64,000 nt of DNA, taken from contig NC_086108.1 in NCBI RefSeq assembly GCF_963921235.1, positions 63,304,001 to 63,368,000 on the forward strand. The letters run 5' to 3'. Shown in pieces: positions 1 through 43,632 of the stretch. The notes beneath the pieces were generated by a model. The model saw only the letters and a program-made list of their open reading frames with translations, was not told where the DNA came from and searched no databases. This stretch comes from Mobula hypostoma (lineage: Eukaryota). Positions within the stretch are counted from its first letter, which is position 1. Each line of letters starts with the position of its first letter. Both the position numbers and the translations under genes were made by a program.

Positions 1-556
1 CATCAAGAAAGCTCACCTCTGTCCCAGGATACTGACGGACTTTTACCGCTGTACCATTGAGAGCATACTCACCAACTGCATCTCAGTGTGGTATGGCAAT
101 TGTCCCATATCGGACTGCAACGCACTCCAGCGGCTGGTGAAAACTGCCCAGTGGATTATTGGCACCCAATTGCCCACCATTGAGAACATCTACCATAAAC
201 ACTGCCTGGGCAGGTTGAAAAGCATTATCAGGGATGCATCTCACCCCAACCATGGACTTTTTATCTCCTCCCATCCGGTAGGTGCTACAGGAGCCTCCGC
301 TCCCGCACCAGCAGGCACAGGAAGAGATTCTTTCCTGAGGCTGTGACCCTGCTGAACCTCACATCACAGCGCTAAGCAGTATTGCACCCATGTTAGACTG
401 TCTCAGTACTTTTATACTTGTGTGCTGTAGCACTTACTTTTTTATTGGCAGTTATTTTGTAAATAATACTATTCTTTTGCACTTCTAGTCAGATGCTAAT
501 TGTATTTCATTAGCTTTGTATCTGTCCTCGGCACAATGACAATAAAGTTGAATCTA

Positions 557-890
557 GCAACACACATAAAAGTTGCTGGTGAACGCAGCAGGCCAGGCAG
601 CATCTCTAGGAAGAGGTGCAGTTGACGTTTCAGGCCGAGACCCTTCGTCAGGCCTAACTGAAGGAAAAGTGAGTAAGCCTCCAACTTTCAAATCCCTTAC
701 TCACTGCTCCCCCTCCCCCTCCAACTTTCAAATCCCTTACTCACTCTTCCTTCAGTTAGTCCTGACGAAGGGTCTCGGCCTGAAACGTCGACTGCACCTC
801 TTCCTAGAGATGCTGCCTGGCCTGCTGCGTTCACCAGCAACTTTTATGTGTGTTGCTTGAATTTCCAGCATCTGCAGAATTCCTGTTGTT
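557..890. mobile_element. Non-autonomous PLE-derived fold-back insertion (terminal repeat plus inverted copy)
   Basis: Arms 557-677 and 736-856 are reverse complements (3 mismatches in 121 nt); 14-bp TSD TAAAGTTGAATCTA at 543-556 and 891-904; matches the 3' end of the PLE at 55324-56637. Confidence 0.9.
757..794 (+). ncRNA. Minimal type I hammerhead ribozyme (PLE-associated)
   Basis: UAGUC-CUGACGA-AGG(gucucgg)CCU-GAAA-CG-UC^GACUG: full catalytic core, stem I UAGUC/GACUG, 3-bp stem II, palindromic ACGU stem III. Confidence 0.8.
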
Positions 891-1139
891 TAAAGTTGAA
901 TCTAATCTAATCTAATCTAATAGAACATTCAGAAATCTGGTGGCGGAGGGGAAGAAGCTCTTCCTAAGACATTGAGTGTGTGTCTTAAGGTTTCTTCCCG
1001 ATGGCAATAATGAGAAGAGAGCATGTTAATGGTCTCCAAAAATGGATGCCACCTTCTTGAGGCATCACCTGGATGGTGAGGAGACTAGTGCCCACAATGA
1101 AGGGCACCAGTATATTGACTGGTCTGTTTTGCATTGCAG

Positions 1140-1199
1140 CTCATGAGTAAAGAACTGCCAGGAATATATGGTGAAGCATCTGGAGACTTGGAACAACGG
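1140..1199 (+). CDS. HOOK1: HOOK1 exon (~ex7) [20 protein letters not shown]
   Basis: ttgcag|CTC...CGG|gtaatt; 60 nt, phase 0/0. Confidence 0.88.
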
Positions 1200-4100
1200 G
1201 TAATTAGAAAATATGATCACATTTTACTTTGCTTACATTTGATTATTACGTCCAGAATTTATTCTAACAAATCTGGGTTTAAGCCATTCCTTTAAAACTT
1301 AAACAATAGTATATTTTTAAAGTTAAGTAAAACTCTATTTTTAATCACTATAATCAGCTCTATTCTCAGGCATGTGGACTCAAAATAATAGACAGCACTA
1401 AGCTTTTTTTGAAAGTAAGTGTTTTAATTTACCCATGAAATGTTAGAAAGCAGAACTGCACTGACTGACCAAAAGATTTCAGCAAGCAGTCATTAAATTG
1501 GATGACTTGAATTCCTGTAACAATTTTTTAATAAAGAGCAAATTTGTTAGTGCATCATAAAGACTGGCAGTTAGATGTGAGTGATAAAATTTGGGTAGGA
1601 GAGGGACAAGTAAAAGAAACTTGGTTTTTGGCAAAGGAGAAGATCTATAGCATGGGGAAGGGTGGGGGTGCAGGTGAAATTCCAACAAGGACAGAATAGT
1701 AATGCAGAGACGAAGGTGGAGCAGAGATTCTACATGTACGTTACTCAGTGGTCACTTCATTAGGTGAAGGAGGCACCGAATAAAGTGACCACTGAATGTA
1801 TGTTTATGGTCTTCTGCTGCTGTAGCCCATCTACTTCAAATTTCGGCATGTTGTGTGTTCAGAGATGCTCTTCTGCACACTCCTATTGTAACAAGTGGTT
1901 TTATGAACTACTGTCACCTTCCTGTCAGCTTGAACCAGCCTGGCCATTCTCTTCTGACCTCTCTCATTAATGAGATGTTTTTGCCCAAAGAATCGGCAGC
2001 ACAGTCATTCCACAGTCAAATTCACTTAGAATACATTTCTTTCCCATTCTGTTGTTTGGTCTGAACAATTAAACCTCTTGACCATCTCTGATGCTTTTAT
2101 GCATTGAGTTGCTGCCATATGATTGGCTGATTTGATATTGGTGTACTGATAAGGTAGCCACTGAGTCCACATCTTTAATTTCTTGAAATAATTTTGGATG
2201 AATTCAGATAATCAAGATTTAGTCATTAAAATATTTTACAATGATACATTCCTCTCCAGCATTGATACTGCTAATGCCTTCTCTGCATAGATGTACCAAA
2301 TGAACTCTGCCACGTCAATGTTGTTAATTTTAATCAAAAGAGACACCGCATGAATTTGGCTCATGCCTTTTACTGATGTTATTGATGCTAGTTATTGACA
2401 CTGTTGACATTGGGTATTGGTTAACTTTGATATTCAAGTTAAATTTTTGAGTCAAAGTCTTCCAGGATATTAGAAGGAAATGGAATGTTGTGGTGGGCAT
2501 TAGTAATAGTTAGAGATGAGCTATGTGTAGTTGTGGTCAAGTGTGGTATAGAGGATCCTCATATGTACAGGCCCAATCAGGTAGTTAGGGAAGACCCCAG
2601 TGTGCTAGTTATTGAGTATAATTCTTGTGTGACATTGATGAAAATTTGGGCATTCTCAGAAACTCGGCATATTGTCACTGTTGACAAACATGGGACTACC
2701 ATAAAGATGGGAACTGGGAAGGGAAGCAAGCAAGGGTGCATATCTGTGTTTGATTTGGTAAGCAGGTTGGCTGGCCTGCATTGTTCAGTGAACGGAGAAA
2801 GGATCAAGGTGGTTCTTTTTGAATTTGAGTCCAGTAGTCTGTCAGGGATGGTGTTTTAGAATTTAAAAGGCATTACAATTATGGAACAGATTACCTGTTT
2901 CACCAGGGGCATCACAAATTAGAAGGAATGAGGATTTCATTCAGAGCAACTAATTGCAAAGAAGGTAGAAGTAGAAATATATTCAGAATGAATGTTCTAG
3001 TTTATAGACAACATCGGGTGATCCTTTTCTACATCCTCTCCAAAGCCTCTACATCCCTTCTGTACTGTGCAATCAGAACTGCACACAATTCTCCGAAGTT
3101 CAACGTGGCTGCAGTATGACTTCCCAGCCAGTGAAAGCAAGCATGTTATACACCTCCATTGCCACTCTGAAGACTTGTGTTGCTACTTTAATGGAACAAT
3201 AGGCAAGCAATAATTTAAATGAAAAATATTTTTCTAGCCACCAGGAGGCATAAAGCATAAGAAAACAAAAAGTTTCTACTTCTGATGAAATCAGAAATTG
3301 CAATCTAATTATGTTCAACGTTGGTCTGGCTGAAATCTTTTACCTTTGAGTCTGAGCAAATTCACAGTTGTATAAAAGCATGCAGTCAGGCGGTACAGAA
3401 GCACAAAGATTAAAGAAAAGTGGATTTGAAATAACCTTTTCTATCTTATAATTACAAAATTAAATGTTTTAATGTTGACTACCAGTTGACCCAATACATC
3501 CCTCCTGTTTGTAAAACGTGAGGGAATATTTGTCGTTTATGTTTTCAGCTGCAACATGCCATGGAAGACCTGAATGATGCTTTGGTGGAGAAGAAAGAGT
3601 TGGCACACCGGTGCCAGGAATTGGATGTTCAGGTCAGTGTACAGAAAGCTGCTTTATAATCTGCATTTGAAGAATGAGCTTCAACCATACCTCAGCATGT
3701 TCAGCCAGTGTCAGTCTTCGATTATCTGGGAGTGAAGATGTGAAAGGAAGAAAAAATTGAGTTCACTATCTTTGTGTTTATAAAAGCCTATAAAGTAGAT
3801 TGGAAAGAGGGTCCAGTATGCTTCTTCACTTGCTCAGTGTCCCTATGAAACAATAATTTCCCCTCAAATGAGTGTTTGGTGAGAATAGTGAAATGCTTGT
3901 GTACTTTTTGATTTGTATTTGCATTCGGATTACATTGAAGAATCTTGATTATTGCTTATTTGCTAAGGCATATAACACTTATGCAGAAATGTATTTAGCC
4001 TTGTACAGTACAAACTAAATGCTTATCTGAACTATTAATGTCTATTTATAAATAGCACTATGAAATATGAGGTGCAGCTATGTTTTTGCTGTAACTAATT

Positions 4101-7100
4101 ATCTTAAATTCAGAATTGCAGTATTGAGTTACAAGGCTGAGGTGTGGAAATCTAGTGGTTATTTGTTCTGATGGAACAAGTAAATAGATTCCTATTTATC
4201 CGACACCTTGTTTGATCTACTGATGGAAGGGGAGCCTCTTAAAGTTTCTACCTGAATCTGATGGTAGCTTCAATAATCTGTATTAGACTAAGGAAAGAGA
4301 AGAGGATTGGTATGGCCTTGGGAAATGAAGCAAAACCAAAGGTTTAGGCGGCACTGTATTATTTTCTAACTTCATGAGTAATCACAGGTACCAAGAGGAA
4401 GAGATTGAAATTTGATCTTTGATGTATACATGCAATGTGCTGGCATTTTCATGCTGTAAGCCACCTCGGAAATTTGTTTTCCTCAAAGTTGCATTTTCTT
4501 GCATTTCATTGGACTCATTTTTTGGGAGGAACTTTAGTCAGAATGGTTTTTAAGAGGTCCAGAGGCTTGAAGGGTGAGTGCATTACAAATGCTTTATTAT
4601 ATTCCCCGCTGGACCTTGGATAACATTTATGTGTTATCTACGTGTGGGTGATATGGTAGCACAACTGGTGAAGTTGCTCTCCCACAGCTCCAGTGGCAAT
4701 TTGTACTCTTCATATGAGTTAGCTCATTCTCGTTGTGGCTTTGAGAGTTTCACTGAGTACATTGCTTTCTGCCCACATTCCAAAATTGGGTCAGTAGCTT
4801 TATTCACCTTTGTAAATTATCCTAGCATGATAGTTAGTGGTAGATGGGGATCTTTGAGAATAAACATAGAACATAGAATAGTACAGCACAGTACAGGCCC
4901 TTCGGCCCACAAAGTTGTGCCGACTCTCAAACCCTGCCTCCCATATGTCCCCACCTTAGATTGTCTAGTAGTCTCTTAAACTTCACTAGTGTACCTGCCT
5001 CCCCCACTGACTCAGGCAGTGCATTCCACACATCAACCACTCTCTGAGTAAAAAACCTTCCTCTAATATCCCCCTTGAATTTCCCACCCTTTACCTTAAA
5101 GCCATGTCCTCTTGTATTGAGCAGTGGTGCGCTGGAGAAGAGGCGCTGGCTATCCACTCTATCTATTCCTCTTATTATCTTGTACACCTCTATCATGCCT
5201 CCTCTCATCCTCCTTCTCTCCAAAGAGTAAAGCCCTAGCTCCCTTAATCTCTGATCATAATGCATACTCTCTAAACCAGGCAGCATCCTGGTAAATCTTC
5301 TCTGTATCCTTTCCAATGCTGCCACATCCTTCCTATAGTGAGGCGACCAGAATTGAACACAGTACTCCAAGTGTGGCCTAACCAGAGTTTTATAGAGCTG
5401 CATCATTACATCTCGACTCTTAAACTCTGTCCCTCAACTTATGAAAGCTAACACCCCATAAGCTTTCTTAACTACCCTATCCACCTGTGAGGCAACCTTC
5501 AGGGATTTGTGGACAGGTACCCCCAGATCCCTCTGCTCCTCCACACTACCAAGTATCCTGCCATTTACTTTGTACTCTGCCTTGGAGTTTGTCCTTCCAA
5601 AGTGTACCACCTCACACAAAATAGGAAAATAGTGTGGGATTAATATAATGGGTACTTGATCATTGGTCAGAATCGATGATCTTATGTTCACTTTCTGTGC
5701 CATGTAACTCCATGTATTTTTTGTTATATATTAATCCAGTGATATGGCCTATGTAGATATGAGCACTATTTAATTTCCTATCTCTATTTGCCTTTGAGAG
5801 GTGGTAGAAAGCTAACTTCTTGAACTGCCATTGTCCTTGTGGTGTGCGTATACTCACAAAGCTGTTAGTGAGGGAATTCTAGGATTTTGACCTAGTGAGG
5901 GTGAGGGGGGGGGGTGGTTGATATATTTTTTTATATACTTTATATACTTAATATACTTTCCAAGTATATCTGGTATGTGGCATAGACGTCTCCATACTTT
6001 GGCTACTCTTTTTCTTCTATCTGGCAGAGGTCATGAGTGCTAAAAGTGCTGTCTAATAGTCTTGGTGACTATCCTAAAGTATTTGGTCCCCACATCTTCA
6101 TATGAAAAAAGTGAAAGGAAACCTGCAGCTTATTGATAACAACTCCCTTTGTGAATGATTGTAGCTTTAGCAGATCACTCATTTCACCAGAATAAGATGT
6201 AAATACTTATCGAATTCTTGGACTGGACATCTCTTCTTGCATTTTCTGATGTCAGGATGCTTTCTAGGACCCCATTAGCATTTAAGGGAACATTTCCAGA
6301 TAAGGGAAAAAAGGCTGCATTATTTTAAAATGTCTTAATAAATAGAATTTCAAAAATCAAAAATAAAAACTTTTTGAAGTGCTTTGGTAATTAAGTAAGC
6401 AACATTTGTCTACTTATGATATTTAATGCATTAGAGGTAGTGTGTTTAATACATCCATATGCAACTAGACAATGCATAACATGACCTTTGCTGCCTGGGC
6501 AATGAGGATAAATTGAAAGTACATATACCTGTAGTTAACTACAAACTCTTCACAGTCAACTTAACACTCTTTTCACCTTGTGCAGAAGGAGAGAGGACTG
6601 GGGATATATCAATTCAAACTCCTCTAATGCATTTCCTGTATCTTTCCCAATATCAATGTAAGAAGATTTTAAGCACATCACATACACAATCACAGGGAAA
6701 GGGGAAAGTCAGTGTTTTTAAAGAAGAAGATTCCAAAATTGGGAGGAAATTCTTTATTAAATGGATATTCTTCCCTTATTTTGTTCCACACATCTTATTT
6801 AGAAATTCAGATGTCCATCACGTCATTCAGAAATGAGAATAAATGTTGAGCAGATATTGCTGCACCAATCACTGTCATGACATCATGCTTTACCAATTCA
6901 ATTGTAGCCCACATAAAAATGTGATTTGGCTAAAATAAAAAGTTTTCCAAACTACATTTTTTAATATTGGATTTTTTTACTGTGCTTTATTAACTGTAAT
7001 GCACAATACAATCTTGCTAGATGTCATTTCAATTGGATTTCTTTTTTGATTTTCATTATTACGTCATTTTGAAACTGTTTGAAAGCAGTAAAATCTAGTG

Positions 7101-10100
7101 AGTGTAATGACTTAACACAAAAATTATTTTATTTATGATTCAAGAAAAATGAATGCCATAAATCAAGAATATGACTGAGAATCATGTAAGAACTGTACAT
7201 TGGAGCACACAAAGGCCACTCATTTTAATTTTGTAAACAAACTAATTTTATCCTAATGGCAAGAGGAATAAGGAAAAAATATAAAGAGAATGGCAAATTG
7301 GCCATTAGTATCATATTTGCAAAATATGTACTGTATCTTCTGTAGCTACTAGGGTATGGTCATATGATAGGGATGTACATGATGCCGTATATTCATAACA
7401 CAAAGTCAAGCATGGATAGTGTAGAGTTTTCTAACGTACTTTGGGCATTGAGCTTCGACTCAGAAATACAATATTCATATGTTACAGTTTAAGATAAAGT
7501 TGTACACTTCCTCTGTAGTTTTTTCATCAAATTATAATGAAAGTGCCATAAACCTTGATAATTGGGACACCCATGTACTTGTAAGCAAGAAAATCAACAA
7601 TATTTGAATCCTAGTTAGGTATGCAGGAAGAAGAAATAATGAGGTACTTGTCTGGAAAATGATGTTTCGAGACGTGGAGATTAAGTTAAATGATCAGAGA
7701 TTAATTTAGATGAGGCTGGTACTCTCTTAAACTGAGAAGAATAAGTGGGGATCTCCTTGAAAGATTGAAAATTTTTGCTAAGCTTGACAGAATAGATGCA
7801 AAGTAACTGTTTCCCCTGGTTGTGGTGTCCAGAACCAAGATCCCAGTATCAACGTAAAGGCTTATCGTTCAGGACAGAGATGAGGAGAAATTTCTTCACT
7901 GTAAGCACAATGAATTTTCAACCCAAGAAATATGTTGAAGACCAAGGTCAAAATGTTTATAGGTCTTAAGGAATTGTGGAATACAAGAATAGTGCAGAAA
8001 AGAGGCTCTGGGGTAAAAGAGCTTATTAAATGGCAGAATAGGCTACACCTACATATGCTTCCTATTTTATGTTATTCCATCTGACTATGTTGGTGTTCCT
8101 TTTCTGATTCCAAATTTGTTGTCCACAGTGATTTGCCACATTACAGAAGTTACTTTTAAAATATTAGACATTAATAAATAATGTCCTCTAAAATGATTTT
8201 TTTTCCCCTTAAGATCATATCCACTGATTCATTCATTGCTCTTCCCTTTGTTTTCCTTAAATACGTTTAGCCTTGATTAAAACTATAGTAACATAAACAA
8301 ATATTGGAGAGCCCCCATCTTTGTTTGAATTTTCTACTAGACTTATGAATGATAAATTAATTCAATGAAGTTCTTTACCCAATGTGTTCAAATTCTTGTG
8401 CATATTACCACTTAGCGTAGTTGTGACAATTTGTCTCGATGCATTTAAATGGTAGTCGGACACAGGAGGGAGAAAGTAATGGAAGGAAATCCAGAGAGGA
8501 TGGCTGGAAGCAAACTGTGAAGGTCTTCATTCGACACAGTAAGCTGAATGACTTCCATATAAAACACAACATTTCATGAAATGAAACGTCAAATTATTTT
8601 TAATGCATTATGACTTAGTGTGCTATCTTCAGTTGAAGTAAATTCCATTGTATTGTAAAACAGTTCTATTGATTACCTTGTAAAGAGAATATTGCCATTG
8701 CAGAGAATGGAGAGAACAACTAGATCTTTTGTCACTTTATTTGAATGGAATTGTTTGATTCATTGCAAAAGGCAAAGCCACAAGATGCCATTTTGCTTCT
8801 TCAAAAGTGTACTATTAATGATAATTGTCCATGGAAATAGTGCTTTGTATATCTAGCCAAATAAATTTTTGCTTGGAGCTATATTGCTATAATAGTGCTG
8901 TTGTTGTAATCGCCCAGGGTGTACCTGTAATTCACACCCACACCTTCCATATGTTGGCTGACTCGGTCATGGATGTGATTGTTAGAGCTATCTGGTAAAC
9001 ACAATTACAACAATGCAAGGCACTGTTACATGGAAACATGATATTAATGGACAAAAAACCTTCTTGCCATCATAATGTCCTATTCTTCACAGCCATGTAA
9101 TTTCTTGAATACAGAGGGAAAGAACTGGAAACAAAAACTTTGGGGAAATTAATCAGCAAAACCCGAGTGAATGCCTCTCAGACCCTTCAGACAATCCAAT
9201 TATTCAGGAGATTTTATTGTTTATTTACGTATTGACTATTAATCTATGTAAATAGATTTAGGTATTTGGGTTAAATTGTTAACATGTCAAAGAATATGTA
9301 ACTACTTCTAGGTTTCTGCTCTACAAGAAGAAAGAAACAGTTTGTTGGCTGATAATGGCCTTCTAACAGAGAAAATACACCAGATGGATGCATTTGATGA
9401 CCCACACCTTGCAAGCAAGTACTTTAATGTTCAGCTACAGCTTGAACAAATGCAAGAAGAGAACTATAGGTTTGTGATTGATTTTGGTTCATTTAATCTG
9501 TGCAGTAAATGTGAGATGCGGGCATCAGTATTGGAACCATACCTTTTACAAAAGAGAAAGGCTGTTGAAGTCAAAGGTCAATCGCCCTAATCCCAGGACA
9601 TCACTACAGGGGCTCCTCAAGACAGTGTTAACTCATTTTCTGCAGCTTCATCAATTGAAGATTAAATATTAGCTTTATTTGTGATAGGGACATCGAAACA
9701 TACAGAGAAATGTGTCATTTGTATCAACAACCAACATAGTCCAAGGATTATGCTGGGGGCAGCCCACAAGTATCTTCCTAACATCATAAGCTCAGAGATA
9801 GGGGCGTTAACTAATGACTGCACAATGCTCAATTCCATTGTCAACTCCTTAACTCACAGGACCCTTGTCTCAAAGTTATCTAGATCTTGTTTCATTGAAA
9901 CATGAAAATGGCTTCATGAAACAGGACCTAGATAACTTTGAGGCAAGGGCTGGCAAGTAACAATCTGGCTACAAGAGGTGCCAGGCTATGGCCATCTTCA
10001 ACAAGAGGCAGCCTAACTGTAAGACTATAAGACCATATGACATAGGAGCAGAATTTGACCATTCAGCACATCGAGTCTGCTCCACTATTCCATCATGGCT

Positions 10101-13100
10101 GATCCTGGATCCCACTCAACCCCATGCACTTGCCTTCTCACCATGCCCACTGATGCCCTGACCAATTAGGAAAATATCCACTCCCGCCTTAAATATACAC
10201 ACGGATTTGGCCTCCACCACAGTCAGTGGCAGAGATTTCCACAGATTCACTACTCTCTGGCTTAAAAAAAAATCCTTCTCACCTCTGTTCTAAAGGGCTG
10301 CCCCTCAATTTTGATGCTGTGCCCTCTAGTTCTGGATACTCCCACCATAGGAAATTATCCTCTCCACATCCACCCTGTCTAGACCTTTCAATATTCAGTA
10401 GGTTTCAATCCTCCCACGTTCTTCTAAATTCCAGTGAGTACAGGCCCAAAACTGGCCAATGCTCCTCCTGTATTAACTCCTTCAGTCCCAGAATCATCCT
10501 CATGAAGCTCTTCTGGACTCTGTCTGATGACAACACATCCTTTCTGAGATATGAGGCCCAAAACTGTTGACTGTGCTCCAAGTGTGGCTTGACTAGTGTC
10601 TTATAAAGGCTCAGCGTTATCTCCTTGCTTTTATATTCTATTCCCCTTGAAATAAATACCAACATTGCATTTGCGTTCTTTACCACAGACTCAACCTGTA
10701 AATTAACCTTCTGGGAGCCTTGCACGAAGACTCCCAAGTCCCTCTGCACCGGTAATGTTTGAACCTTTCCCCATTTAGATAATAATCTGCACTATTGTTG
10801 CCTTCACCAAAATGCATTATCATACAGTTTCCAACACTATTCCATCTGCCACTTTTTGGCCTATTCTTCTAATTTATCTAAGTCCTGCTGCAATCACATT
10901 GCTTTCTCAGCACTACCTACTCTTCTACCTAGCTTTGTATCATCCGTAAACTTTGCCAAATAGTTGTCAATTCCACTGCATCTCCTTTGTCCAGCCTGCT
11001 TGTTACTTCCTGAAATAAATCTAACAGATTTGTCAGGCAGGATTTCCCTTCACAGAAACCATGCTGACTTTGACTTATTTTATCAATAGTCTCCAAATAC
11101 CTCCAAACCTCATCCTTAATAATAGACCTGCAATACTTTCTCAACCACTGAGGTTAAGCTAACTGGCTTATCATTTCCTTCCTTTTGCTTTCCTCCCTTC
11201 TTAAAGAGTAGAGTGACATTTGCAATTTTCTAGTCCTCCGGGATCATGCCAGAATCAAGAAGTGATTCTTGAAAGACCATGACCAATGCATCAGTTATCT
11301 CTTCAGTAACCTCTCTCAGGACTCTGGGATGTAGTCCATCTGGTCCAGGTGACTTATCCACCTTAAGACCTTTGAGTTTGCCTAGCACTTTTTCCTTTGT
11401 AATGGCAATAGTACTCACTCCTGCTCCCTAACATGGACCTTTGGCACACAGATAGTGGTCTTCCACAGTGAAGACTGATGCAAAGTATCCCAGATGTTCA
11501 TCTGCCATTTCTTTGTCCCCTATTAGTATATCACCAGTATCATTTTCCAGTGGTCCAATATCAATTCTTGTCTCCCTTTTACTCTTTATATAACTGAAAA
11601 TACTTTTAGTATCCTGCTTTATATTATTGGCTAGTCTGCCCTCGTATCTCATCTTTTCCCTTCTTATAGCTTTAGCCTTTTGTTGGATTTTAAAAGCTTC
11701 CCAATCATCCAACTTCCCACTCACTTTTGCTACCTAATATGTTCTTTCCTGGGCTTTTATGCCCTTTCCTTGGCTTATATGAGATCCTTAACTTCCTTTG
11801 TTAGCCACGGTTGCCTACCCCTGCCATTTGAGAACTTCTTCCTCTGTAGGATATATCTATCCTGTGCTTTGAGAACTATTCTCAGAAATTTCTGCCATCT
11901 TCCCCACCAGTGTCCTCCTCCAATCAACCTGGGCAAGCTCCTCTCTCATGCCTCTGTAATTCCCTTTATTCCATTCCGATACTGATACACGTCACTTATG
12001 CTTCTCCCTGTCAGATAGCAGTCTGAATTCAATCATTTTGATAACTTTCTCCTAGGGGTTCTATTACCTTAAGCTCCCTAGTAAGATCTAGGTTGTTATA
12101 CAACACCCAATCTAAGGTGGTCTTTCCCTGCATAGGCTCAAGCACAAGCTGCTCTAAAAAGCTATCTTGTAGATATTCAACAAATTCCCCCCTCTTGCAA
12201 TTTGACACCAATCTGATTTCCCCAATCGCCTTGCATATTGAAGTCCCCCATTACAATTAACCGCGGGGTGCAAAAAGTCTTTTTTTTAAAAAAAACACTG
12301 CTCTGGGAGAAGGGTCTGCACTGCGCAGGCGTATGACGTAGCGCACCAAGGTTTAAAAACAGACTACCATATACAGCAGGCAGCAGAGTGAGAGGGAGCA
12401 GAGTGGGATGGCTTTGGCTCAACAGGCTTCGGCGAGAACAGGCAGAGGCCAGGGTAGGTTCCGGTAAGTTTTTTGTCCAGTTTGTTCAGAGTAGAGAGAA
12501 TGCCAGGCAGGATGTTGGAATGCTCCTTGCAGGATCTGGGAAGTCAGGGAGCCCTCCAGTGTCCCTGACAACAACATCTGCAAGAAGTGCATCCAGCTGC
12601 AGCTCCTAACAAACCGCGTTAGGGAACTGGAGCAGGAGCTGGATGACCTCCGGATCATTCGGGAGAATGAGGAGATTATAGTTCGTAGCTACAGTGAGGT
12701 AGTTATGCCAAAGGAGCAGAGCACAGGAAATTGAGTCACTTTCAGGTGAGGGAAGAGGAAAGGACAGGCAGAGCAGGGTTCCCCTGTGGCCATTCCCCTC
12801 AACAACAAGAATACCGCATTGGATACTGTTGGGAGGGGGGGGGGGATACTTACTTGGAACAAGCTGCAGCAGCCAGATCTCTGGCACGGAATCTGGTTCA
12901 GCAGTGCAGAAGGGAGGGGGGAGAAAGAGGAGAGCAGTAGTGATAGGGGACTCGATAGTTAGAGGTGCAGATAGGAGGTTCTGTGATCGTGACAGAGAAT
13001 CCAGGATGGTTTGTTGCCTCCCAGGTGCCAGGGTCAGGGATGTCTCTGAACGATTGCATGACATTCTGAAATGGGAGGGTGATCAGCCAGATTGGTACCA

Positions 13101-16100
13101 ATGACATAGCAAGGAAGAGTGAGGAGGTCCTGGAGAGTGCGTATAGAGAGCTTGGTAGGAAGTTGAAAAGCAGGACCTCGAGGGTGGTAATCTCAGGATT
13201 GCTACCTGTGCTACGTGCCAGTGAGGGTAAGAATGGGATGCTCTGGAGGATGAACAAGTGGCTGAGGAACTGGTGTAGGGGGCAGGGTTTCCGATTTCAG
13301 GATCATTGGGACCTCTTCTGGGGCAGGTGGGACCTGTACAAGAGAGACGGGTTACACTGGAACTACAAGGGGACCAATATCCTTTCAGGGAGGTTTGTTG
13401 GTGCTATTGAGGAGGCTTTAAACTAGATTTGCAGGGCGATGGGAATCAGGGTGCCGGAGCTGACAGTGTGGCTGGGTTGAAAATAAATGATGTTAAAAGT
13501 TCAAGCAAAGCCGCTAATAGAAAGGTTGTGAGTGGTGGTAAAAATCTTCTGAGGTGTATATATTTCAATGCTAGGAGTATTGTGGGAAAGGCAGAAGAGT
13601 TGAGAGTGTGGATTGACACATGGATTTATGACGTTATAGCAATTAGTGAAACTTGGCTACAGGAGGGGCAGGACTGGCAGCTTAATATTCCAGGGTTCTT
13701 ATGTTTCAGATGTGATAGAGGCAGAGGAATGAAAGGTGGGGGGGGGGGTAGGGTGGCATTGCTTGTCAGGGAAAATATTACAGCAGTGCTCAGGCAGGAC
13801 AGATTAGAGGGCTTGTCTACTGAGTCCTTATGGGTGGAGCTGAGAAACAGGAAAGGTATGACCACATTAGTGGGGTTGTATTATAGACCACCCAATAGTC
13901 AGCGAGAATTGGAGGAGCAAATCTGCAGAGAGATAGTAGGCAACAGCAGGAAACATAAAGTTGTGGTGGTAGGGGATTTTAATTTCCCACATATTGATTG
14001 GGACTCCCATACTGTTAGGGGTCTAGATTGTTTAGAATTTGTAAAATGTGTTCAGGAAAGTTTTCTAAATCAATGTATAGAGGTACCAACTATTGGATCT
14101 CCTGTTAGGAAACGAGTTAGGACAAGCGACGGAAGTGTGTGTAAGGGAGTACCTTGGTTCCAGTGATCATAACACCATTAGTTTCAACTCGATCACGGAC
14201 AAGGATAGATCTGGTCTTAGGGTTGAGGTTCTGAACTGGAAGAAGGCCAAATTTGAAGAAATGAGAAAGGATCTAAAAAGCATGGATTGGGACAGGTTGT
14301 TCTCTGGCAAGAATGTGATTGGTAAGTGGGAAGCCTTCAAAGGAGAAATTTTGAGAGTGCAAAGCTTGTATGTTCCTGTCAGGATTAAAGGCAAAGTGAA
14401 TGGGAATAAGGAACCTTGGTTCTCAAGGGATATTGCAACTCTGATAAAGAAGAAGAGAGTTGTATGACATATATATGAAACAAGGAGTAAATAAGGTGCT
14501 TGAGGAGTATAAAAAGTGCAAGAAAATACTTGAGAAGGAAATCAGGAGGGCTAAAAGAAGACATGAGGTTGCCTTGGCAGTCAAAGTGAAGGATAATCCA
14601 AAGAGCTTTTACAGGTATATTAAGAGTAAAAGGATGGTAAGGGATAAAATTGGTCCTCTTGAAGATCAGAGTGGTCGGCTCTGTGTGGAACCAAAAGAAA
14701 TGGGGGAGATCTTAAATGGGTTTTTTGCGTCTGTATTTACTAAGGAAACTGTCATGAAGTCTATGGAATTAAGGGAAACAAGTAGTGAGATCATGGAAAC
14801 TGTAAAATTGAAAAGGAGGAGGTGCTTGCTATCTTGAGGCAAATTAAAGTGGATAAATCCCCAGCACCTGACGGGGTATTCCCTCGTACATTGAAGCAGA
14901 CTAGTGTTGAAATTGCAGGGGCCCTGGCAGATATATTTAAAATGTCGGTGTCTACGGGTCAAGTGCCGGAGGATTGGAGAATGGCTCATGTTGTTCCATT
15001 GTTTAAAAAAGGATCAAAAGTTAGCCGGGAAATTATAGGCCGGTAAGTTTGACGTCGTAGTAGGTAAGTTATTGGAGGGAGTACTAAGAGACAGAATCTA
15101 CAAGCATTTGGATAGACTGGGACTTATTAGGGAGAGTCAATATGGCTTTGTGCGTGGTAGGTCATGTTTGGCCAATCTACTGGAGTTTCTGGAGGAGGTT
15201 ACCAGGAAAGTGGATGAAGGGGAAGGCAGTGGCTGTTGTCTACATGGACTTCAGTAAAGCCTTTGACAAGGTTCCACATGGGAGGTTAGTTAGGAAAATT
15301 CAATCACTAGGTATACATGGAGAGGTGGTAAATTGGATTAGACGTTGGCTCAATGGAAGAAGCCAAAGAGTGGTAGTAGAGAATTGCTTCTCAGAGTGGA
15401 GGCCTGTGACTAGTGGTGTGCCACAGGGATCAGTGCTGGGTCCATTGTTATTTGTCATCTATATCAATGATCTGGATGATAATGTGGTAAATTGGATCAG
15501 CAAATTTGCTGATGATGCAAAGATTGGAGGTGTAGTGGACAGTGAGAAAGGTGTTCAAAGCTTCCAGAGTGACTTGGACCAGCTGGAAAAATGCGCTGAA
15601 AAATGGCAGATGGAGTCTAATACAGACAAGTGTGAGGTACTGCACTTTGGAAGGACAAACCAAGGTAGGTCATACAGGGTAAATGGTAAGGCACTGAGGA
15701 GTGCAGTAGAACAGAGGGATCTGGGAATACAGATACAAAATTCCCTAAAAGTGGTGTCACAGGTAGATAGAGTCGTAAAGAGAGCTTTTGATACACTGGC
15801 CTTTATTAATCAAAGTATTGAGTGTAAGAGTTGGAATGTTATGATTTTTTTTTGTATAAGGCATTGCTGAGGTCAAATCTGGAGTATTGTGTTCAGTTTT
15901 GGTCACCAAATTACAGGAAGGATATAAATAAGATTGAAAGAGTGCAGAGAAGGTTTACAAGGATGTTGCCGGGACTTGAGAAACTCACAGAGAAAGGTTG
16001 AATAGGTTAGGAATTTATTCCCTGGAGCGTAGAAGAATGAGGGGAGATTTGATAGAGGTATATAAAATTATGATGGGTATAGATAAAATTAATGCAAACA

Positions 16101-19100
16101 GGCTTTTTCCACTGAGGCAAGGGGAGAGAAAAAACAGAGGACATGGGTTAAGGGTGAGGGGGGAAAAGTTTAAAGGAAATATTAGTGGGGGCTTCTTCAC
16201 ACAAAGAGTGGTGGGAGTGTGGAATGAGCTACCGGACGAGGTGGTAAATGTAGGTTCTTTTTTAACATTTAAGAATAAATTGGACAGATATATGGATGGG
16301 AGGTGTATGGAGGGATATGGTCTGTGTGCAGGTCAGTGGGACTAGGCAGAGAATGGTTTGGCACAGCCAAGAAGGGCCAAAAGGCCTGATTCTGTGCTGT
16401 AGTTTTTTATGGTTTCTATGGCTTCTCTAGCCATCTAACCAATATAACAATTACAGCACGGAAACAGGCCATCTCGGCCCTTCTAGCCCGTGCCGAACTC
16501 TTACTCTCACCTAGTCCCACCGACCTGCACTCAGCCCATAACCCTCCATTCCTTTCCTGTCCATATAGCTGTCCAGTTTAACTTTAAACGACAACATCGA
16601 ACCTGCCTCAACCACTTCTGCTGGAAGCTCGTTCCACAGAGCCACCACTCTCTAAGTAAAGAAGTTCCCCCTCATGTTACCCCTAAACTTTTGCCCTTCA
16701 GCTCTCAACTCACGTCCTCTTGTTTGAATCTCCCCCACTCTCAATGGAAAAAGCCTATCCATGTCAACTCTATCTATCCTCCTCATAATTTTAAATACCT
16801 CTATCAAGTCCCCCCTCAACCTTCTACGTTCCAAAGAATAAAGACCCAACTTGTTCAACCTTTCTCTGTAACTTAGGTGATGAAACCCAGGTAACATTCT
16901 AGTAAACCTTCTCTGTACTCTCTCTATTTTGTTGACATCTTTCTTATAATTTGCTGACCAAAACTGTACACAATACTCCAAATTTGGCCACACCAATGCC
17001 TTGTACAATTTCAACATTACATCCCAACTCCTATACTCAATGCTCTGATTTATAAAGGCCAGCATACCAAAAGCTTTCTTCACCACCCTATCCACATGAG
17101 ATTCCACCTTCAGGGAACTATGCACTATTATTCCTAGATCCTAGATTGTGTCATTACTCTTATTACATGCCTTTTCCAGCTCCCTTTGCGATCTTAACCC
17201 CACATCTTGGCTGCTGTTTGGAGGCCTATATATGATTCCCAAAATGGTTTCTTTTACCCTTGTAATTTCTTCACTGCACCCAAAAAAATTCATCATTCTT
17301 TGACCCTATGTCACCTCTTTCTAAAGATATAATTCCATCTCTTGCCCACAGAGCTAGAGCAATACCTATGCCTTCCTGCTGGTCCTTTCATTACAAACAT
17401 ATCCTTTGATGTTAAGCGCTCAACTATCGCCTTCTTTCAGCCACGACTCAGTGATGCCCACAATGTAACACCGACCAATCTCTAATTGTGCCACAAGTTT
17501 ATTCACCTTATTTCGAATGCTACATGCATTTAAATACAGCACCTTCAGTCCTGCATTCTTCACCCTTTTGAATTTTGCCTCTGTGGTACAATTTAACTCT
17601 TTGCTCTGTCTGCATTTGTACCCAATCATTTGTTTGTCCTTTCTTACATTCATGTTACACCTATCATCTACTTGTAAACCTGCTGGATCATCCTGAGCTC
17701 TATCATACTGGTTTCCATCCCCCTGCCATATTAGTTTAAACCATTCCCAACAGCAGGGGTAAATCTGCCTACAAGAATTTGGTCCCCATCGGATTCATAT
17801 GCAACTGTCCCTTTTGTACAGGTCCCACCTGCCCCAGAAAAGGTCCCAATTAACCAGCATTCTGAATCCTGCTCCCTGCTCCAATTTTTCAGCCACACAT
17901 TTATCTACCACCTCATTCTATTCTTATGCTGTTGAGTGGCACCGGCAGCAATCTGAAGATTACCACCTTTGAGGTCCTGCTTCTCAGCTTCCTTCCTAAC
18001 TCCCTGTATTCTTTTTTCAGTACCTCCTCCCTTTTTGTTCCTGTGTTGTTGGTACCAATATGTTTCATGACTTCTGGCTGCTCAGAGCACGTCCAGAAAT
18101 ATCTTGGACCCTGGCACCTGGGAGGCAAACTACTATCCATGTTTCCTTTTTGTGTCCAAAGAATTGTCTCTGTCCCCCTGACTATAGAGTCCCCTATTAC
18201 AGCTGCCGTCCTTTTCATTTCGCTACCCTTCGCAGTCACAGAACCAGACTCGGTGCTAGAGGCACGGCCGCTGTTTCTTCCCCCAAGTAGGTCATCTCCC
18301 CAAACAGTACTCAAAATAGAGTAATTATTATTGAGGGGGACGACCACAGGGGTGCTCTCCACTATCTGACGTTTCCCATTCACTATCCTGACAGTCGCAC
18401 ATTTATTTGTCTCCTGTAGCCTGGGGTGACTAGCTCCTGTCTATCACTGCTTCACTTTCCCTAACAAGCGGAAGGTCATCGAGCTGTAGCTCCAGTTCTC
18501 TAACACTGTCTCTAAGGAGCTATATCTCAATGCATCTGGCACAGATGTGGCCATTGAGGAGGCTGGGAATCTTCTGTAAATCCCACATCTGACACTCGGA
18601 ACAGAACACTGGCTCTGTAGACATACCCGCTATTCTGTCAAGATTTAAGTAAGAAATAAGGAATGAACTTACCTACTTATTTTGCCTCTGCCTGTTCTTG
18701 CCGAAGCCTTGTTGAGCTAAAGCCTTACTACTCTGCCTCAGACTATTCCAATGACAACTGCTCCCATCATGACAGCTCCGCTAGGCGGTACCTCTTTTAT
18801 AGAGACTGTGTTTCCCATGGAAAATCTTCGTCAGACCTGCACGCGAATGCTCCTGTTGCATCCGTGTTGTAGTTCAATCAACCACTTCTGTCAAAAAGCT
18901 TGCTGCTTTTTCAGGCTGTTTGTCAGACCTGCGCAGGAACACTCCGGTTGTGTCTGCGCAGTACTCCAGTCAATTACTTTGACATTCAGTGGCTTTACCA
19001 TCACTGAATCCTCCTCTCTCAATATTCTGGGTGGAATTTGGTGGGGGTGGTGGGTGATTGATCACCACTGAACTTCAAAGAGGCACTACCACCTTTACAA

Positions 19101-22100
19101 AGACAATCTGAGAAGACAGACTTGCTGGGAGCTGTGGCACTCTATACTTTTACCACCAGATGGAGCTCCAATTACTCCCAGTGCTGCAGATGATTGTTCC
19201 CACAGCAGCTCAGTTCTACTAACTTCACCAGCCTTGCTGACCTTATGCTTAATTACCAGCAAGCTTAGAGCATCACTTCCCCACATTCTGTATTCATTGC
19301 ATCATCAGATCAACACATTAGCTCATGGTGCATCATATTCATTGCATCATCAGATCATAGTGCATCAAATTTTCTCCTTAAACAATAAGCAAATACCATG
19401 AACATTTTACATCAAATCTTTCCTTGCCATTCCAAAGGCAATTTAGCTTCTCTTATTTACAGCATCCATTTAAAGAGTTTGGTTGAACTTTCTGTTCTCT
19501 TTTAAAACTTTTCACTGACTTTTCAACTTGCTTGTCATTTTATGCACATATGCTCTTGCATTCTTAAAATTTGTAATAGTTTACTGGGAAAGGAACTTCA
19601 TAAACTAAAGAGCTTGCACTCATAACAACAGTCTGACAGTCTATTGGTAACGTTTTGGGAGATCCATTATTTGGTATATCTCCATTCTAAATCACAGAAA
19701 GAAAGCGGCTTAAAGTATGAATGAATTTTAAATAAAAGCTTTGATCCTCAGCAGTGACTGCTTTGCCAATTCAAAATATGTTAACGGTACATTATATTAA
19801 TTTTGGTTCATTTTTATTTAGCATAAATTTATATATATTTACAGTTATTTCCTTAAATATTTATTTCTGTTAGAATATCCTTTTTATTTGACATAAAATG
19901 CCTTTGGTCTTTTATTGATTACCTTTAATGCATAGCTTGCCTCCTAGCAGAATCAGTGTTTCCTTTATTCTTCTCATTACTATTATTTACTCAATTACTT
20001 TCTTATTTTCCCATGACATTTTCTTTCAGTTTTGATAATTTTGGAAATCAGGTAAGATGATATATTAAAACCAGAGGTCAGCAAAGTGTATGCTTTATAC
20101 TATTTTGCTTTTGATAAACTTTTGTGGTCATCTTGTGTATACATAATTGTTACTTAATGATATAATTAAAATTGTCCAAAAATTACATTATTTAGATATG
20201 TAAAGATAGTAGGTGGGATGTCCTTTCCTTAGTAATTTCTCCTCTCATTTCCCGTAAAGAGCTATTAGTGTTTGCCCTGATGGAGTCCCCTCGGTTGCGA
20301 ACTTAGCACGTGATGGAGTTGTGGCAGTGTGGAAGTGCAAATGGAACATATTATGTTTCACATTGTATTGCTAGGTATACCTGTTGCTTAGATTTTAACC
20401 CTAATCCAAAGCAGGAAATTGGATGTGCAAAGGGACTTGGAAGTCTACTGCAGGGTTCCCTAAAGCACGAGTGTTCTTTTTCTTTTGCAGGGGGCAGATC
20501 AATCTGCCCATCTGACCCAACAGGTGATTGTCAAGTACTCCAGTAGCAACTTGCTTTAAGTCAGCATATTGGGAGGCACTAACTCAAGGTATCCTGACGG
20601 TCTTTAATAGTTTGTCAGCTGTCAAAGGCTTCTCAAGAAGTTTTAAACCCATCTGCTTATCACTGTTTGCACTCAGTGTTCCCTACAGTGACAGTGTGAG
20701 CATTGAAGTAAATGAGGCTCCAGTTATACACTCTCTCTTGTGTGGAACTAAGAACTGGATGTAAAGAACACCCGAGCACTCCTTCGCGAGTTGTTCGGGT
20801 GAACTTCATTTCAAAGGTTGGTTGTGACATAGATCAAGGTCAATAGGTTCTTGGAAATAATTTTACAGAGCTGTTTTTGTTGTGAATCTCTCCAGGCTTG
20901 AAGCAGCAAAAGATGACTATCGTATTCATTGTGAAGAGCTTGAGAGACAACTGATTGAAGTACAGCACAGAAATGATGAATTAAACAGTTTGGCAGAGGA
21001 AAATCTCGCACTTAAAGATGAAATTGATGTTCTGAGGTAATAAAAAGATCTCCTGACAAAGAGTCTCCACCCGAAATGTTGACTGTACCTCTTCCTATAG
21101 ATGCTGCCTGGCCTGCTGCGTTCACCAGCAATTTTTATGTGTGTTGCTCCACCTACATTGTGTTAACTAACAGCACAAAATATTGGAGCAGAAGTAGAAA
21201 AACATAGAAAACCTACAGCACAATACAGGCCCTTCAGCCCACAAAGTTGTGCCGAGCATGTCCTTACCTTAGAAATTACTAGGCTTACCCATAGCCCTCT
21301 ATTTTTCTAAGCTCCATGTACCTATCCAAAAGTCTCTTAAAAGATCCTATCGTATCCACCTCCACCACCGTTACCGCCAGCCCGTTCCACGCACAAGTAG
21401 CCAAATAGTCCATTGAGTTTGCTTGGTTGAGTATGGCTAATCTGATCTTGGCTTCAAAAGTTCAAAGGTTCAATTTAGTGTCAGAGAAATGTATACAATA
21501 TACATCCTGAAATGCTTTTTCTTTGCAAAACATCCACGAAAACAGAGAAGTGCCCCAAAGAATGAACGACAGTTAAACGTGAGAACCCCAAAGGCCCCCC
21601 CACCAAGCTCCCCCCCCATGCGTAAGCAGCGGCGAGCAACAACCCCCTTCCCACTGGTAGAACAAAAAGCGCACCCGCTACCGAGCACAAGCGTGAGCTA
21701 AGTGATAGCAAAGACACAGACCTTGCAGTTTACCCCAAGGACTATAGCAATTCATCTGGCATTCGGCTACCCACAGATACTCTCTCTACCTCATAAGAGA
21801 GAGAGAGGTGTCCCCCATTTTCACAGTGAGCAGGAGACATAACAACAACCGGCTGGTTTATGATGTTAAAAAGTCCATTTCGTCGCTTTTTTCCGAGCTC
21901 TGTGCCCAAAGATCACAAAGATCTCAAGTCTTCAAGCCTCCAGCGAAAGATTTTCTGGCCTCCCTGACGACACACGAGTCTCCTGCCATGACTCTGACCC
22001 TCGATCCGCCCATCTCCAGAGCCCCAAGATCTTAGGCTTCCAGACACTACGCCACCTGTCAGGCCAACCCCTTGGCATGCTGAACATCAGCTGGTCCTGA

Positions 22101-25100
22101 AACCCTGAGAACGAGTCCCATTCCCGCAAAGAACCGAAGTGAGCGTGTAACTCCAGGTCAGGGTCTTCAAAAGAACCCTGAAAGGGAAAAATAAACATAT
22201 TAAAGATGGAAATAGAACTGTTTCCGAAGATGCAAGCAAAGGAGTCGCCGTTTAGCGCCATCATTACTCCGTCTCCATCTTCATTTACACTTTTTCCTTG
22301 CTCCTGATTGCCCTTGATGACACTATACATCAAAGATCTTATGAATATTTTTAATGACTCTGCCTCCATAGTTCACTGGAGGAGAGAATTCTTGAGATTC
22401 ATAATCCAAGAAAATTCTTGAGAACTTCCTCCTCATCTTTATCTTAAATGGGCAGCCCCTTAACCTACAGCAAGACTATCCCCTAATTTTAGATCCCTTT
22501 TAATGTGTATTGTCCGAATATTATTAAACTAAACAACAGCAACAATTCTGACCAGGAATTGTTTCATAATCTGTGTCATCAAAGAGTTTTTTATATTCGA
22601 AATAAGAGGATAGATAAATCATTCAACTGTATTCTGCCTCTTTCATAGGAGACCGACACAGAATGCAAGACCACCTACAATAATTGGCTTCAATTTTGGA
22701 TGCAAAAGCAGGAACACACAAAAAAAAACTGCTGGAAAATGTATAAGCACCAGCAAGTTCACTGTTCCTCTGCAGTTTTCTGACTATATGCTCCTATGTC
22801 GGACTGTGCATGTAATCTAATCGTGAAGTGCGAGATGGTGTTCAGAATTTGAAATCCATCAGTCACTCTGCACCAAGTGCAGGAACAGTTTTTCCTCTGT
22901 CTTAGAGTAGAACAGCTGTGAGAAACCAAACAAAGCTAAGATAATATATACCTTTTAATTATTTTGGTCAGTTTATTTTTACATATGAATTGCTTCTCAT
23001 TTTAACAGTTTGAATGTGATTTGATGGTTTATATTTTGAATGCTTTTGCTTGTGAAATATTCACAGTGCTCCAACAGGGGTAAGTTGAGTCACAGCTAAA
23101 CTGTAGTTTGAGTTTTTTCTGCATTTTTATTGGTGGGGCATGTTCTCCAACTCCTTACCCTCTCCTACCTCCTTTACAGGATTTGCATGGTGGAAGCTCT
23201 GTCACAGCAAAGAGCCTGGCCCCCAATGAGTGTGGAGCCTGCTTCTGTCCAAGGTTGAACTGTGCTGATTTTGATCAGTGGTCTGCCTTGCATAGAACAT
23301 AGAACACAGGTGCAGGAGTAGGCCATTCGGCCCTTCGAGCCTGCACCGCCATTCAGTATGATCATGGCTGATCATCCAATTCAGAACCCCGCCCCAGCCT
23401 TCCCTCCATACCCCCTGATCCCTTTAGCCACAAGGGCCAGATCTAACTCCTTCTTAAATATAGCCAATGAACTGGCCTCAACTGTTTCCTGTGGCAGAGA
23501 ATTCCACAGATTCACCACTCTCTGTGTGAAGAAGTTTTTCCTAATCTCGGTCCTAAAAGGCTTCCCCTTTATCCTCAAACTGTGACCCCTCGTTCTGGAC
23601 TTCCCCAACATCGGGAACAATCTTCCTGCATCTAGCCTGTCCAATCCCTTTAGGGTTTTATACGTTTCAATCAGATCCCCCCTCAATCTTCTAAATTCCA
23701 ACGAGTATAAGCGCAGTTCATCCAGTCTTTCATCATATGAAAGTCCTGCCATCCCGGGAATCTGGTGAACCTTATTTGTACTCCCTCTATCGCAAGAATG
23801 TCTTTCCTCAGATTAGGGGACCAAAACTGCACACAATACTCCAGGTGTGGTCTCACCAAGGCCTTGTACCACTGCAGTAGTACCTCCCTGCTCCTGTACT
23901 CGAATCCTCTCGCTATAAATGCCAGCATACCATTCGCCTTTTTCACCGCCTGCTGTACCTGCATGCCCACTTTCAATGACTAGTGTATAATGACACCCAG
24001 GTCTCGTTGCACCTCCCCTTTTCCTAATCGGCCACCATTCAGATAATAATCTGTTTCCCTGTTTTTGCCACCAAAGTGGATAACCTCACATTTATCCACA
24101 TTAAATTGCATCTGCCATGAATTTGCCCACTCACCTAACCTATCCAAGTCACCCTGCATCCTCTTAGCATCCTCCTCACAGCTAACACTGCCGCCCAGCT
24201 TCGTGTCATCCGCAAACTTGGAGATGCTGCATTTAATTCCCTCATCCAAGTCATTAATATATATTGTAAACAACTGGGGTCCCAGCACTGAGCCTTGCAG
24301 TACCCCACTAGTCACTGCCTGCCATTCTGAAAAGGTCCCGTTTATTCCCACTCTTTGCTTCCTGTCTGCCAACCAATTCTCTGTCCACATCAGTACCTTA
24401 CCCCCAATACCATGTGCTTTAAGTTTGCACACTAATCTCCTGTGTGGGACCTTGTCAAAAGCCTTTTGAAAATCCAAATATACCACATCCACTGGTCCTC
24501 CCCTATCCACTCTACTAGTTACATCCTCAAAAAATTCTATGAGATTCGTCAGACATGATTTTCCTTTCACAAATCCATGCTGACTTTGTCCGATGATTTC
24601 ACCGCTTTCCCAATGTGCTGTTATCACATCCTTGATAACTGACTCCAGCAGTTTCCCCACCACCGACGTTAGGCTAACCAGCCTATAATTCCCCGGTTTC
24701 TCTCTCCCTCCTTTTTTAAAAAGTGGGGTTACATTAGCCACCCTCCAATCCTCAGGAACTAGTCCAGAATCTAACGAGTTTTGAAAAATTATCACTAATG
24801 CATCCACTATATCTTGGGCTACTTCCTTAAGCACTCTGGGATGCAGACCATCTGGCCCTGGGGATTTATCTGCCTTCAATCCCTTCAATTTACCTAACAC
24901 CACTTCCCTACTAATATGTCTTTCCCTCAGTTCCTCCATCTCACTGGACCCTCTGTCCCCTACTATTTCCGGAAGATTATTTATGTCCTCCTTAGGGAAG
25001 ACAGAACCAAAGTAATTATTCAATTGGTCTAATGCATACTGTGCAATTGAATCTTCAGAGCTATATAATGTGTTTTAATACTGTTCAGAAACTGGGAAAA

Positions 25101-43100: not shown

Positions 43101-43547
43101 AATTACACACTCCAAAGTCAGGGAGTATCATGTAAAAGTACTTGCATTGTCTTGTTTTACAGTGTAGTGAACTAAAGAAATTGGATGCACATCTGTAAGT
43201 AAACTTTTTAAAATGTTATTGTCTATTTAGTAGTTCCCAAACTATCACTGTGTCTAAAAGTATGTAGATTTAATTATAAAGGAGACATTATATACTGCAG
43301 ATGCTTACAAAAAACAAACTGCTGTAAGAACTCAGTGAGTTAGGCATCATCCGTGGAGGCAGAGGTACAAATGATATTTCAAGTCAAAATCCTGCATCAG
43401 GGCAGATTCAATTACAGTATTGGAATCCGGTTTAATATCATCGAAATATGATGTGAAATTTGTAGTTTCGCGGCAGCAGTACATTGCAATACATAATAAA
43501 AACTGTACATTACAATAAATGTATGTATGTATTAATGTGTGTGTGTA

Positions 43548-43585
<38 letters not shown>

Positions 43586-43586
43586 G

Positions 43587-43632
<46 letters not shown>

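Follow-up and report, generated by a model that had tools for sequence, protein, structure and literature searches.

The eight hammerhead motifs in the 64-kb window of Mobula hypostoma DNA analysed here (the window being the whole stretch) appear to be minimal type I hammerheads lying in the 3' repeats of six 5'-truncated or inverted PLE insertions, and in their present positions they are likely to be inert relics, a reading to which we assign a probability of roughly 0.85. All eight fit the minimal type I hammerhead consensus of PLE terminal repeats, published as a U-rich segment, helix I, CUGANGAH, G...C and GAAAN-palindrome-NUH (PMC4209133); the type I topology, the CUGANGA and GAAA boxes, NUH and helices I and II that mark PLE minimal hammerheads are found. 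A first-pass annotation had noted a complete hammerhead core at 757-794(+), an identical copy at 35592-35629(-) and six variants elsewhere. The core and its copy were borne out, the two sequences being identical and both passing a strict descriptor (see below), and all eight sites are present at, or no more than 3 nt from, the positions first given. The six variants are all there, but three of them have broken cores and three have mismatches in helix I.

In the 757..794(+) motif, which lies in the HOOK1 sense and has an intact core, helix I is formed by 757-761/790-794, the CUGACGA box occupies 762-768, A769 is an extra unpaired nucleotide, and helix II comprises 4 bp (770-773/778-781); the GAA box (782-784) is followed by the ACGU palindrome (785-788) and by C17 at 789, after which the cut is predicted. 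The earlier description of the motifs as minimal type I hammerheads with an ACGU palindrome, together with the predicted cut position, agrees with the published consensus. The extra base that separates position 9 from 10.1 recurs in all eight copies and the ACGU palindrome is kept in six. At 10.1-11.1 the 757 copy has a G-U pair, as do three of the eight copies in all, the family majority being G-C (5/8). The catalytic core is intact in five copies and mutated in the other three (21048, 41249 and 61277), and of the five with intact cores, three (619, 55387 and 61164) have helix I mismatches, such that six of the eight are damaged in one or the other.

It should be emphasized that the bare core pattern is not above chance, as it gave 10 matches in the window against a shuffle mean of 6.7, with 10 or more in 15 of 100 shuffles. 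A structure-aware strict descriptor, passed by only two of the eight copies, found those two sites, 757(+) and 35592(-), and none in each of 100 Markov-resampled controls. A covariance model made from the eight motifs recovers them at 47-64 bits, a match by construction, and the same model revealed no ninth copy in the window, its next match scoring only 11.8 bits. No hammerhead family was among the 21 Rfam matches to the window at E values up to 1, and a metagenome scan with the exact degenerate motif pattern returned no matches.

Since 619 and 757 form one inverted pair and 61164 and 61277 another, the eight motifs represent six insertions. The 757 motif belongs to a single head-to-head pLTR insertion (557..890; arms ~557-677(-) and 707-890(+)), in which its inverted mate, 619..656(-), has an intact core and two helix I mismatches adjoining that core. 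A tail of ~33 nt (858-890) is present on one arm only, the + transcript of the insertion is predicted to form a hairpin of ~125 bp, and a 14-bp target-site duplication (543..556(+), second copy 891-904) lies within an older LINE, in its tail of AATCT repeats. Where the two arms meet there is a ~27-nt direct duplication (678-706), which suggests a template jump. The second insertion (21051..21148(+)) is a 5'-truncated pLTR that starts 14 nt after a HOOK1 exon; the core of its 21048 motif is broken (G8>A), the palindrome and N17 are altered by CpG transitions, and no target-site duplication was found for it. At 21038-21051 this copy begins, 14 nt past the HOOK1 donor, exactly at the boundary of the second AG of the acceptor-like site. 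A third PLE copy, antisense to HOOK1, is split by a CR1-type insertion into a 3' part with the intact hammerhead at 35592-35629 (35544..35915(-)) and a 5' part (36878..37256) consisting of the endonuclease end, 36878-37079(-), and a 5' inversion, 37080-37256(+).

The pLTR at 41183..41300(-) is of a second subfamily, ~75% identical, in which the hammerhead (41249-41286) carries G12>A, and a pyrimidine tract and CAG overlap helix I. The longest PLE fragment, 55328..56650(-), contains the hammerhead at 55387-55424, a ~300-nt 3' region that is 79% pyrimidine, and an ORF (56686-55729, stop 55726-55728) comprising a frameshifted RT C-terminus, a C-x4-C-x2-C linker and a GIY-YIG endonuclease. The last insertion is a second head-to-head pLTR pair (~61070..61326), in which 61164-61201(-) has an intact core and a tail, and 61277-61314(+) a broken core. 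Copies 619 and 21048 have 3' ends ~68 nt after the start of the helix I 3' strand, copies 757, 41249 and 61164 end 25-33 nt further on, and the three other copies end earlier. A clear target-site duplication is seen in one of the six insertions, the best shared words of the others being 10 nt or shorter, or absent, with boundaries that are approximate. No tandem pair of motifs on the same strand occurs within the window. Inverted pairs, one-sided tails and duplications are all described signatures of PLE insertion (PMC8557442, PMC3846280, PMC11167929).

The link that the first-pass annotation drew between the 55387 copy, GIY-YIG and PLEs was confirmed through homologues and not through the frameshifted peptides of the window itself, which gave no relevant Pfam match. 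Homologues of the 55387-copy ORF carry, in order, RT YxDD, a CX4CxxC linker and GIY-YIG, and two of them (P0026 and P0032, with RT YxDD and GIY-YIG; Pfam PF01541, PF00078) are colinear on 56638-55720. A search of the PDB with the endonuclease profile found nothing significant. The 55387 and 35592 motifs lie ~300 nt past the stop of the GIY-YIG ORF, the latter after discounting the CR1 insert. The C-x4-C-x2-C linker is seen both in the window peptide and in the homologues. As Neptune and Nematis are described as having a CX2-5CxxC linker, and Penelope/Poseidon as lacking one (PMC8557442), the parent element is likely to be a Neptune-type PLE, with Nematis a possible assignment; the Poseidon clade, our first guess, was rejected on the presence of this linker. 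Ray RefSeq proteins named DIPK1C, CHID1 and mucin-2 (P0030, P0155, P0033, P0029) match the PLE ORF, and their names are thus misleading; two DIPK1C isoforms are the PLE ORF almost from end to end.

The location of the motifs in HOOK1 introns, also claimed at first pass, is upheld by the mapping of the protein on the window, which placed 16 exon pieces for residues 146-707 of the 707-residue HOOK1 at 1122..63836(+). One exon peptide is 100% identical over 65 residues to Mobula hypostoma HOOK1, compared with ~82% for HOOK3 proteins. Six motifs fall between mapped exons; we infer that 619 and 757 are also intronic, because the N-terminal HOOK1 exons lie outside the window, upstream. Copies 757, 21048 and 61277 are sense to HOOK1, and the remaining five are antisense. 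Self-similar sequence makes up ~47% of the window (30,055 bases) and consists for the most part of fragments of CR1-type LINEs (15982-16874 and many others), which include a 365-nt inverted pair 163 nt apart. A different LINE family is represented by a 351-residue RT ORF with an ALKBH8_N-like domain at 44529-45584, to which the fragment at 1-372 is similar, and the hairpin of a microsatellite, (TG)n(TA)n(CA)n, at 43517-43638 gives rise to spurious Rfam microRNA matches below gathering scores.

The state of the wider family was examined in a DNA run, from which 161,039 contigs were placed on 711 bases of the long 55387 copy. Among the 40 of 131 differences listed, the majority letters of the contigs restore helix I of this copy at 55388 (97.5%) and 55420 (96%), and N7 at 55415 (71%); at position 11.1 C is the majority (~69%) and U a minority (31%). 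The majority of the copies in the window agrees with the contig majority, and in both the core is intact. The intact motif is thus the parental one, copy 757 being a variant with G-U. Contigs of a second organism (code X17) are likewise rich in this PLE family. An opposite-strand joint at 55380/55419 marks another inverted pair, which begins at the hammerhead core; it is found in the DNA run and in contigs from two organism codes, and probably represents one shared locus; a head-to-tail joint from 55788 to 55349, with a unit of ~466 nt, is either a partial tandem or a retrozyme-like repeat.

Half of the 28 differences among the window copies are CpG transitions (14/28), CpG cells differing in 17 of 80 cases against 11 of 221 for the others (Fisher p = 7e-5, for copies that are not independent). 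None of nine pairs shows a two-sided, compensatory change among the seven distinct copies, which are ~90% alike and offer little divergence; the helices therefore rest on the cross-species consensus and not on covariation. CpG transitions together with the lack of compensatory change indicate decay after insertion.

Motif density in the window is 125 per Mb (Poisson 95% 54-246), and that of strict-descriptor passes 31 per Mb (Poisson 95% 4-113). If the window is typical, scaling to the DNA run, whose contigs add up to ~2.8 Gb, would give roughly 1.5-7 x 10^5 remnants and 10^4 to 3 x 10^5 intact motifs, both figures being extrapolated from this one window. A high copy number, as proposed earlier, is thus probable, as an extrapolation from window density only. 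Published counts of PLE hammerheads are ~4,000 for the coelacanth and ~9,000 for X. tropicalis (PMC4209133), which the ray may exceed, and a section title in the literature gives up to 120,000 hammerheads for the axolotl. Motif counts, however, overstate the number of active ribozymes, as the 38-nt motif contains five CpGs and decays fast.

In motifs of this kind there are two bases between A15.1 and U16.1, so that helix III forms only between two motifs (PMC4209133). Folding with nearest-neighbour energies, which ignore tertiary contacts and Mg2+, gave -11.0 kcal/mol for the misfolded monomer against -7.0 kcal/mol for the hammerhead-like fold, whose probability was 0.0006. The double hammerhead was predicted at -11.5 kcal/mol; two monomers, both misfolded, came to -22.0 and the MFE structure of the dimer to -30.3. 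In transcripts of the inverted pairs, 757-794 is predicted to pair with the upstream inverted arm with a mean probability of 0.97, and 61277-61314 with its inverted mate with a mean probability of 0.88. Published activities are low: single minimal hammerheads did not cleave and multimers cleaved weakly (PMC4209133), eight of nine frog dimers tested showed no cleavage (bioRxiv 10.64898/2026.07.22.740005), and the anole PLE hammerhead cleaves only with the element's protein, in a C3/G8-dependent manner, and is dispensable for insertion in vitro (PMC11167929). The first-pass annotation spoke of eight self-cleaving motifs, a description not supported as it stands, given the damage to six of the eight, the lack of a same-strand tandem partner, the unfavourable double-hammerhead fold, the predicted pairing of the intact sense copy with its inverted mate, the lack of compensatory change among the copies, and, in the literature, the low or nil unaided activity of such motifs and the protein dependence of the anole one.

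A coherent account would be as follows. In a tandem transcript of the parent element, the cut after C17 would be made only if two motifs shared the ACGU helix or if the element's protein chaperoned the fold. With folds unfavourable and published unaided activity low, we favour protein-assisted or dimer-dependent cleavage in the parent, the window copies being inert; by analogy with the anole PLE, protein-assisted cleavage is the likeliest activity of the parent. Reverse transcription begins at the 3' ends, and as the motif is ~70-100 nt away from these, nearly every truncated copy inherits it, which explains its density without a host function. In HOOK1 pre-mRNA five copies are antisense and two sense copies (21048 and 61277) have dead cores; the intact sense copy, 757, would be locked into a hairpin with the inverted mate that lies upstream of it. 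The sense copies are thus predicted to be core-broken, hairpin-locked with an inverted mate, or both, and, as there is also no tandem partner, spontaneous cleavage of the window copies in HOOK1 pre-mRNA is unlikely on these folding models. This pattern of broken or masked sense copies comprises three copies, too few to argue for selection, and may be due to chance.

The repeat also contains splice-like signals. A putative acceptor site at 735..759(+), in which a pyrimidine tract leads to CAG (753-755) and then to another AG (758-759), coincides with the start of helix I, and in all seven copies that retain upstream sequence a pyrimidine tract (0.70-0.90) ends in AG at this point. Among the window's 4,067 YAG sites they rank in the top 0.3-11%; the scores of candidate HOOK1 acceptors are 0.55-0.80. 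Other subfamilies, represented by loose ends of contigs, have the same tract and AG at helix I, with GTAAT over the ORF stop, and two Hypanus sabinus RefSeq isoforms are identical through the last PLE ORF codon and then diverge, which points to a splice donor there. The stop context of the main subfamily is GC-TAA, not GG-TAA, with no GT at the stop, and its own donor is thus not evident. Two of the six matches to the reading frame of the hammerhead are Mobula RefSeq proteins (the remaining four are weak), in which the hammerhead-frame peptide has its first residue at the CAG acceptor or no more than two codons from it. This frame, at 755-900, is open for at least 46 codons through hammerhead and tail, may start the ORF of the next unit, and is found inside STARD3NL isoform X3 and an uncharacterised protein. 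The four RefSeq ray proteins, with the accessions XP_062913069.1, XP_072132000.1, XP_059827355.1 and XP_059827357.1, are consistent with use of the acceptor and donor sites, although genomic 5' truncation could instead account for where the peptide begins in the two Mobula proteins. None of the 15 joints listed, of 176, is an exact intron-skipping joint. The contig depth ratio of guessed-RNA to DNA runs is ~3-5x lower in the stretch from the stop codon to helix I than in its two flanks (medians, x100, of 0.9/2.6/2.6 against 4.3/7.1/8.6 and 3.5/9.2/8.3), but this dip was not counted as evidence of splicing, as contig depth cannot rank the parts and sister subfamilies share the ORF end and the hammerhead but not the intervening stretch.

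In D. virilis, the 3' end of the Penelope pLTR intron maps to the start of helix I (PMC4209133), and by analogy the ray repeat may hold a spliceosomal intron ending at helix I, so that sense copies could occasionally be spliced into host mRNAs. The Drosophila intron is 75 bp and that of the ray, if real, would be ~300 nt; only sister subfamilies show a donor over the ORF stop. With an acceptor at helix I, the arrangement known from D. virilis would be generalized to a Neptune-type element of a vertebrate; since the overlap of intron end and helix I is already published, the ray case would be an extension of it.

It could be argued that the hammerhead is kept mainly as a splice acceptor, an ORF start or a protein-binding signal, cleavage being vestigial or the motif parasitic on the element. 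The acceptor-like context of seven out of seven copies and the frame open through motif and tail argue for this, as do the ability of the anole PLE to insert in vitro without hammerhead cleavage (PMC11167929) and the success of Naiad PLEs without hammerheads, parasitism being raised by the authors (PMC8557442). The core is, however, kept across metazoan PLEs despite unrelated helices (PMC4209133), the anole motif does cleave in a C3/G8-dependent manner (PMC11167929), and no frame is open past the motif in the 41249 subfamily copy, and we regard such a role as unlikely to be the main one. A bolder extension is that rays carry ~10^5 acceptor-plus-hammerhead cassettes, of which the sense copies are spliced into host mRNAs as the start of an exon and cut only with the Neptune protein. 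We consider this a long shot; if true, the cassettes would be among the largest ribozyme loads of any vertebrate, and PLE activation would be a protein-switched, transcriptome-wide cleavage that would select for inverted or mutated intronic sense copies.

Alternatively, the motifs could be active dimeric ribozymes, dispersed transcripts or retrozyme-like tandems derived from this pLTR cleaving themselves and perhaps circularizing, with some window copies acting in trans. This is quite improbable. The family-majority core is intact, PLE-derived non-LTR retrozymes with a mean unit of 363 bp are reported from one chondrichthyan (bioRxiv 10.64898/2026.07.22.740005), and contigs of two of the four runs contain the head-to-tail joint (3' end, 26 letters, back to 55788; unit ~466 nt), but that joint is equally a PLE partial tandem, the window holds no tandem same-strand pair, the double-hammerhead fold falls short of the stability of two misfolded monomers by ~10 kcal/mol and of that of the dimer MFE by 19, and the frog dimers, in the same preprint, failed to cleave in eight of nine cases. 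Similarly, the intronic location, with one copy 14 nt after an exon, could suggest that some copies have been recruited for HOOK1 regulation, in the manner of the ultraconserved hammerheads found in amniote introns. That copy, however, has a dead core, decay follows CpG mutation, and canonical hammerheads have longer helices and loop contacts that are missing from this motif; co-option, which we find most improbable, was rejected on these grounds. Inert relics of PLE insertion remain the preferred explanation of the window copies.

By every sequence feature examined, the window copies are PLE minimal hammerheads, and neither retrozymes nor Penelope/Poseidon motifs. Non-LTR retrozymes (PMC7229834; bioRxiv 10.64898/2026.07.22.740005) are likewise type I, pLTR-related and present in a chondrichthyan, but they form tandem arrays, whereas the copies of the window occur singly or in inverted pairs, two of them still joined to remnants of the ORF; tandem hammerhead units without an ORF do not occur in the window. 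Neptune EN+ PLEs (Craig et al. 2021, PMC8557442) resemble the ray element in their C-terminal GIY-YIG with CCHH-type residues, CX2-5CxxC linker, inverted 5'-truncated mate, one-sided tail of 30-40 bp and microsatellite-like target tract, although the window holds only 3' fragments, with no full-length or tandem element. PAc, the Poseidon of Anolis carolinensis (PMC11167929), is also a vertebrate PLE with a minimal hammerhead in its pLTR and has two preferred 3' ends that define a tail. It differs in belonging to another clade, Penelope/Poseidon, without the CX2-5CxxC linker, in having its start codon at helix II, where the main ray subfamily has no ATG, and in that its hammerhead activity has been measured.

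The closest likeness is to the PLE minimal hammerheads of PMC4209133, which share the type I fold, the extra nucleotide between 9 and 10.1, the G10.1-C11.1 pair of the family majority, the two-base palindromic 15.2-16.2 and the U-rich upstream sequence, and which mostly occur solo in truncated PLEs or as opposite-strand pairs 100-700 bp apart; helix II has 4 bp in the ray motif compared with 7-8 in Schistosoma. Cartilaginous fish are absent from the part of Fig. S3 and the two supplement files of that paper that were covered, and literature searches on cartilaginous-fish PLE hammerheads found no description of the ray family, although preprint supplements or Repbase/Dfam may have one. The class is already known, and the ray family most likely extends PLE minimal hammerheads to batoid fishes, providing a homogeneous and abundant family in which to probe the role of the motif, a question that the cited papers leave open.
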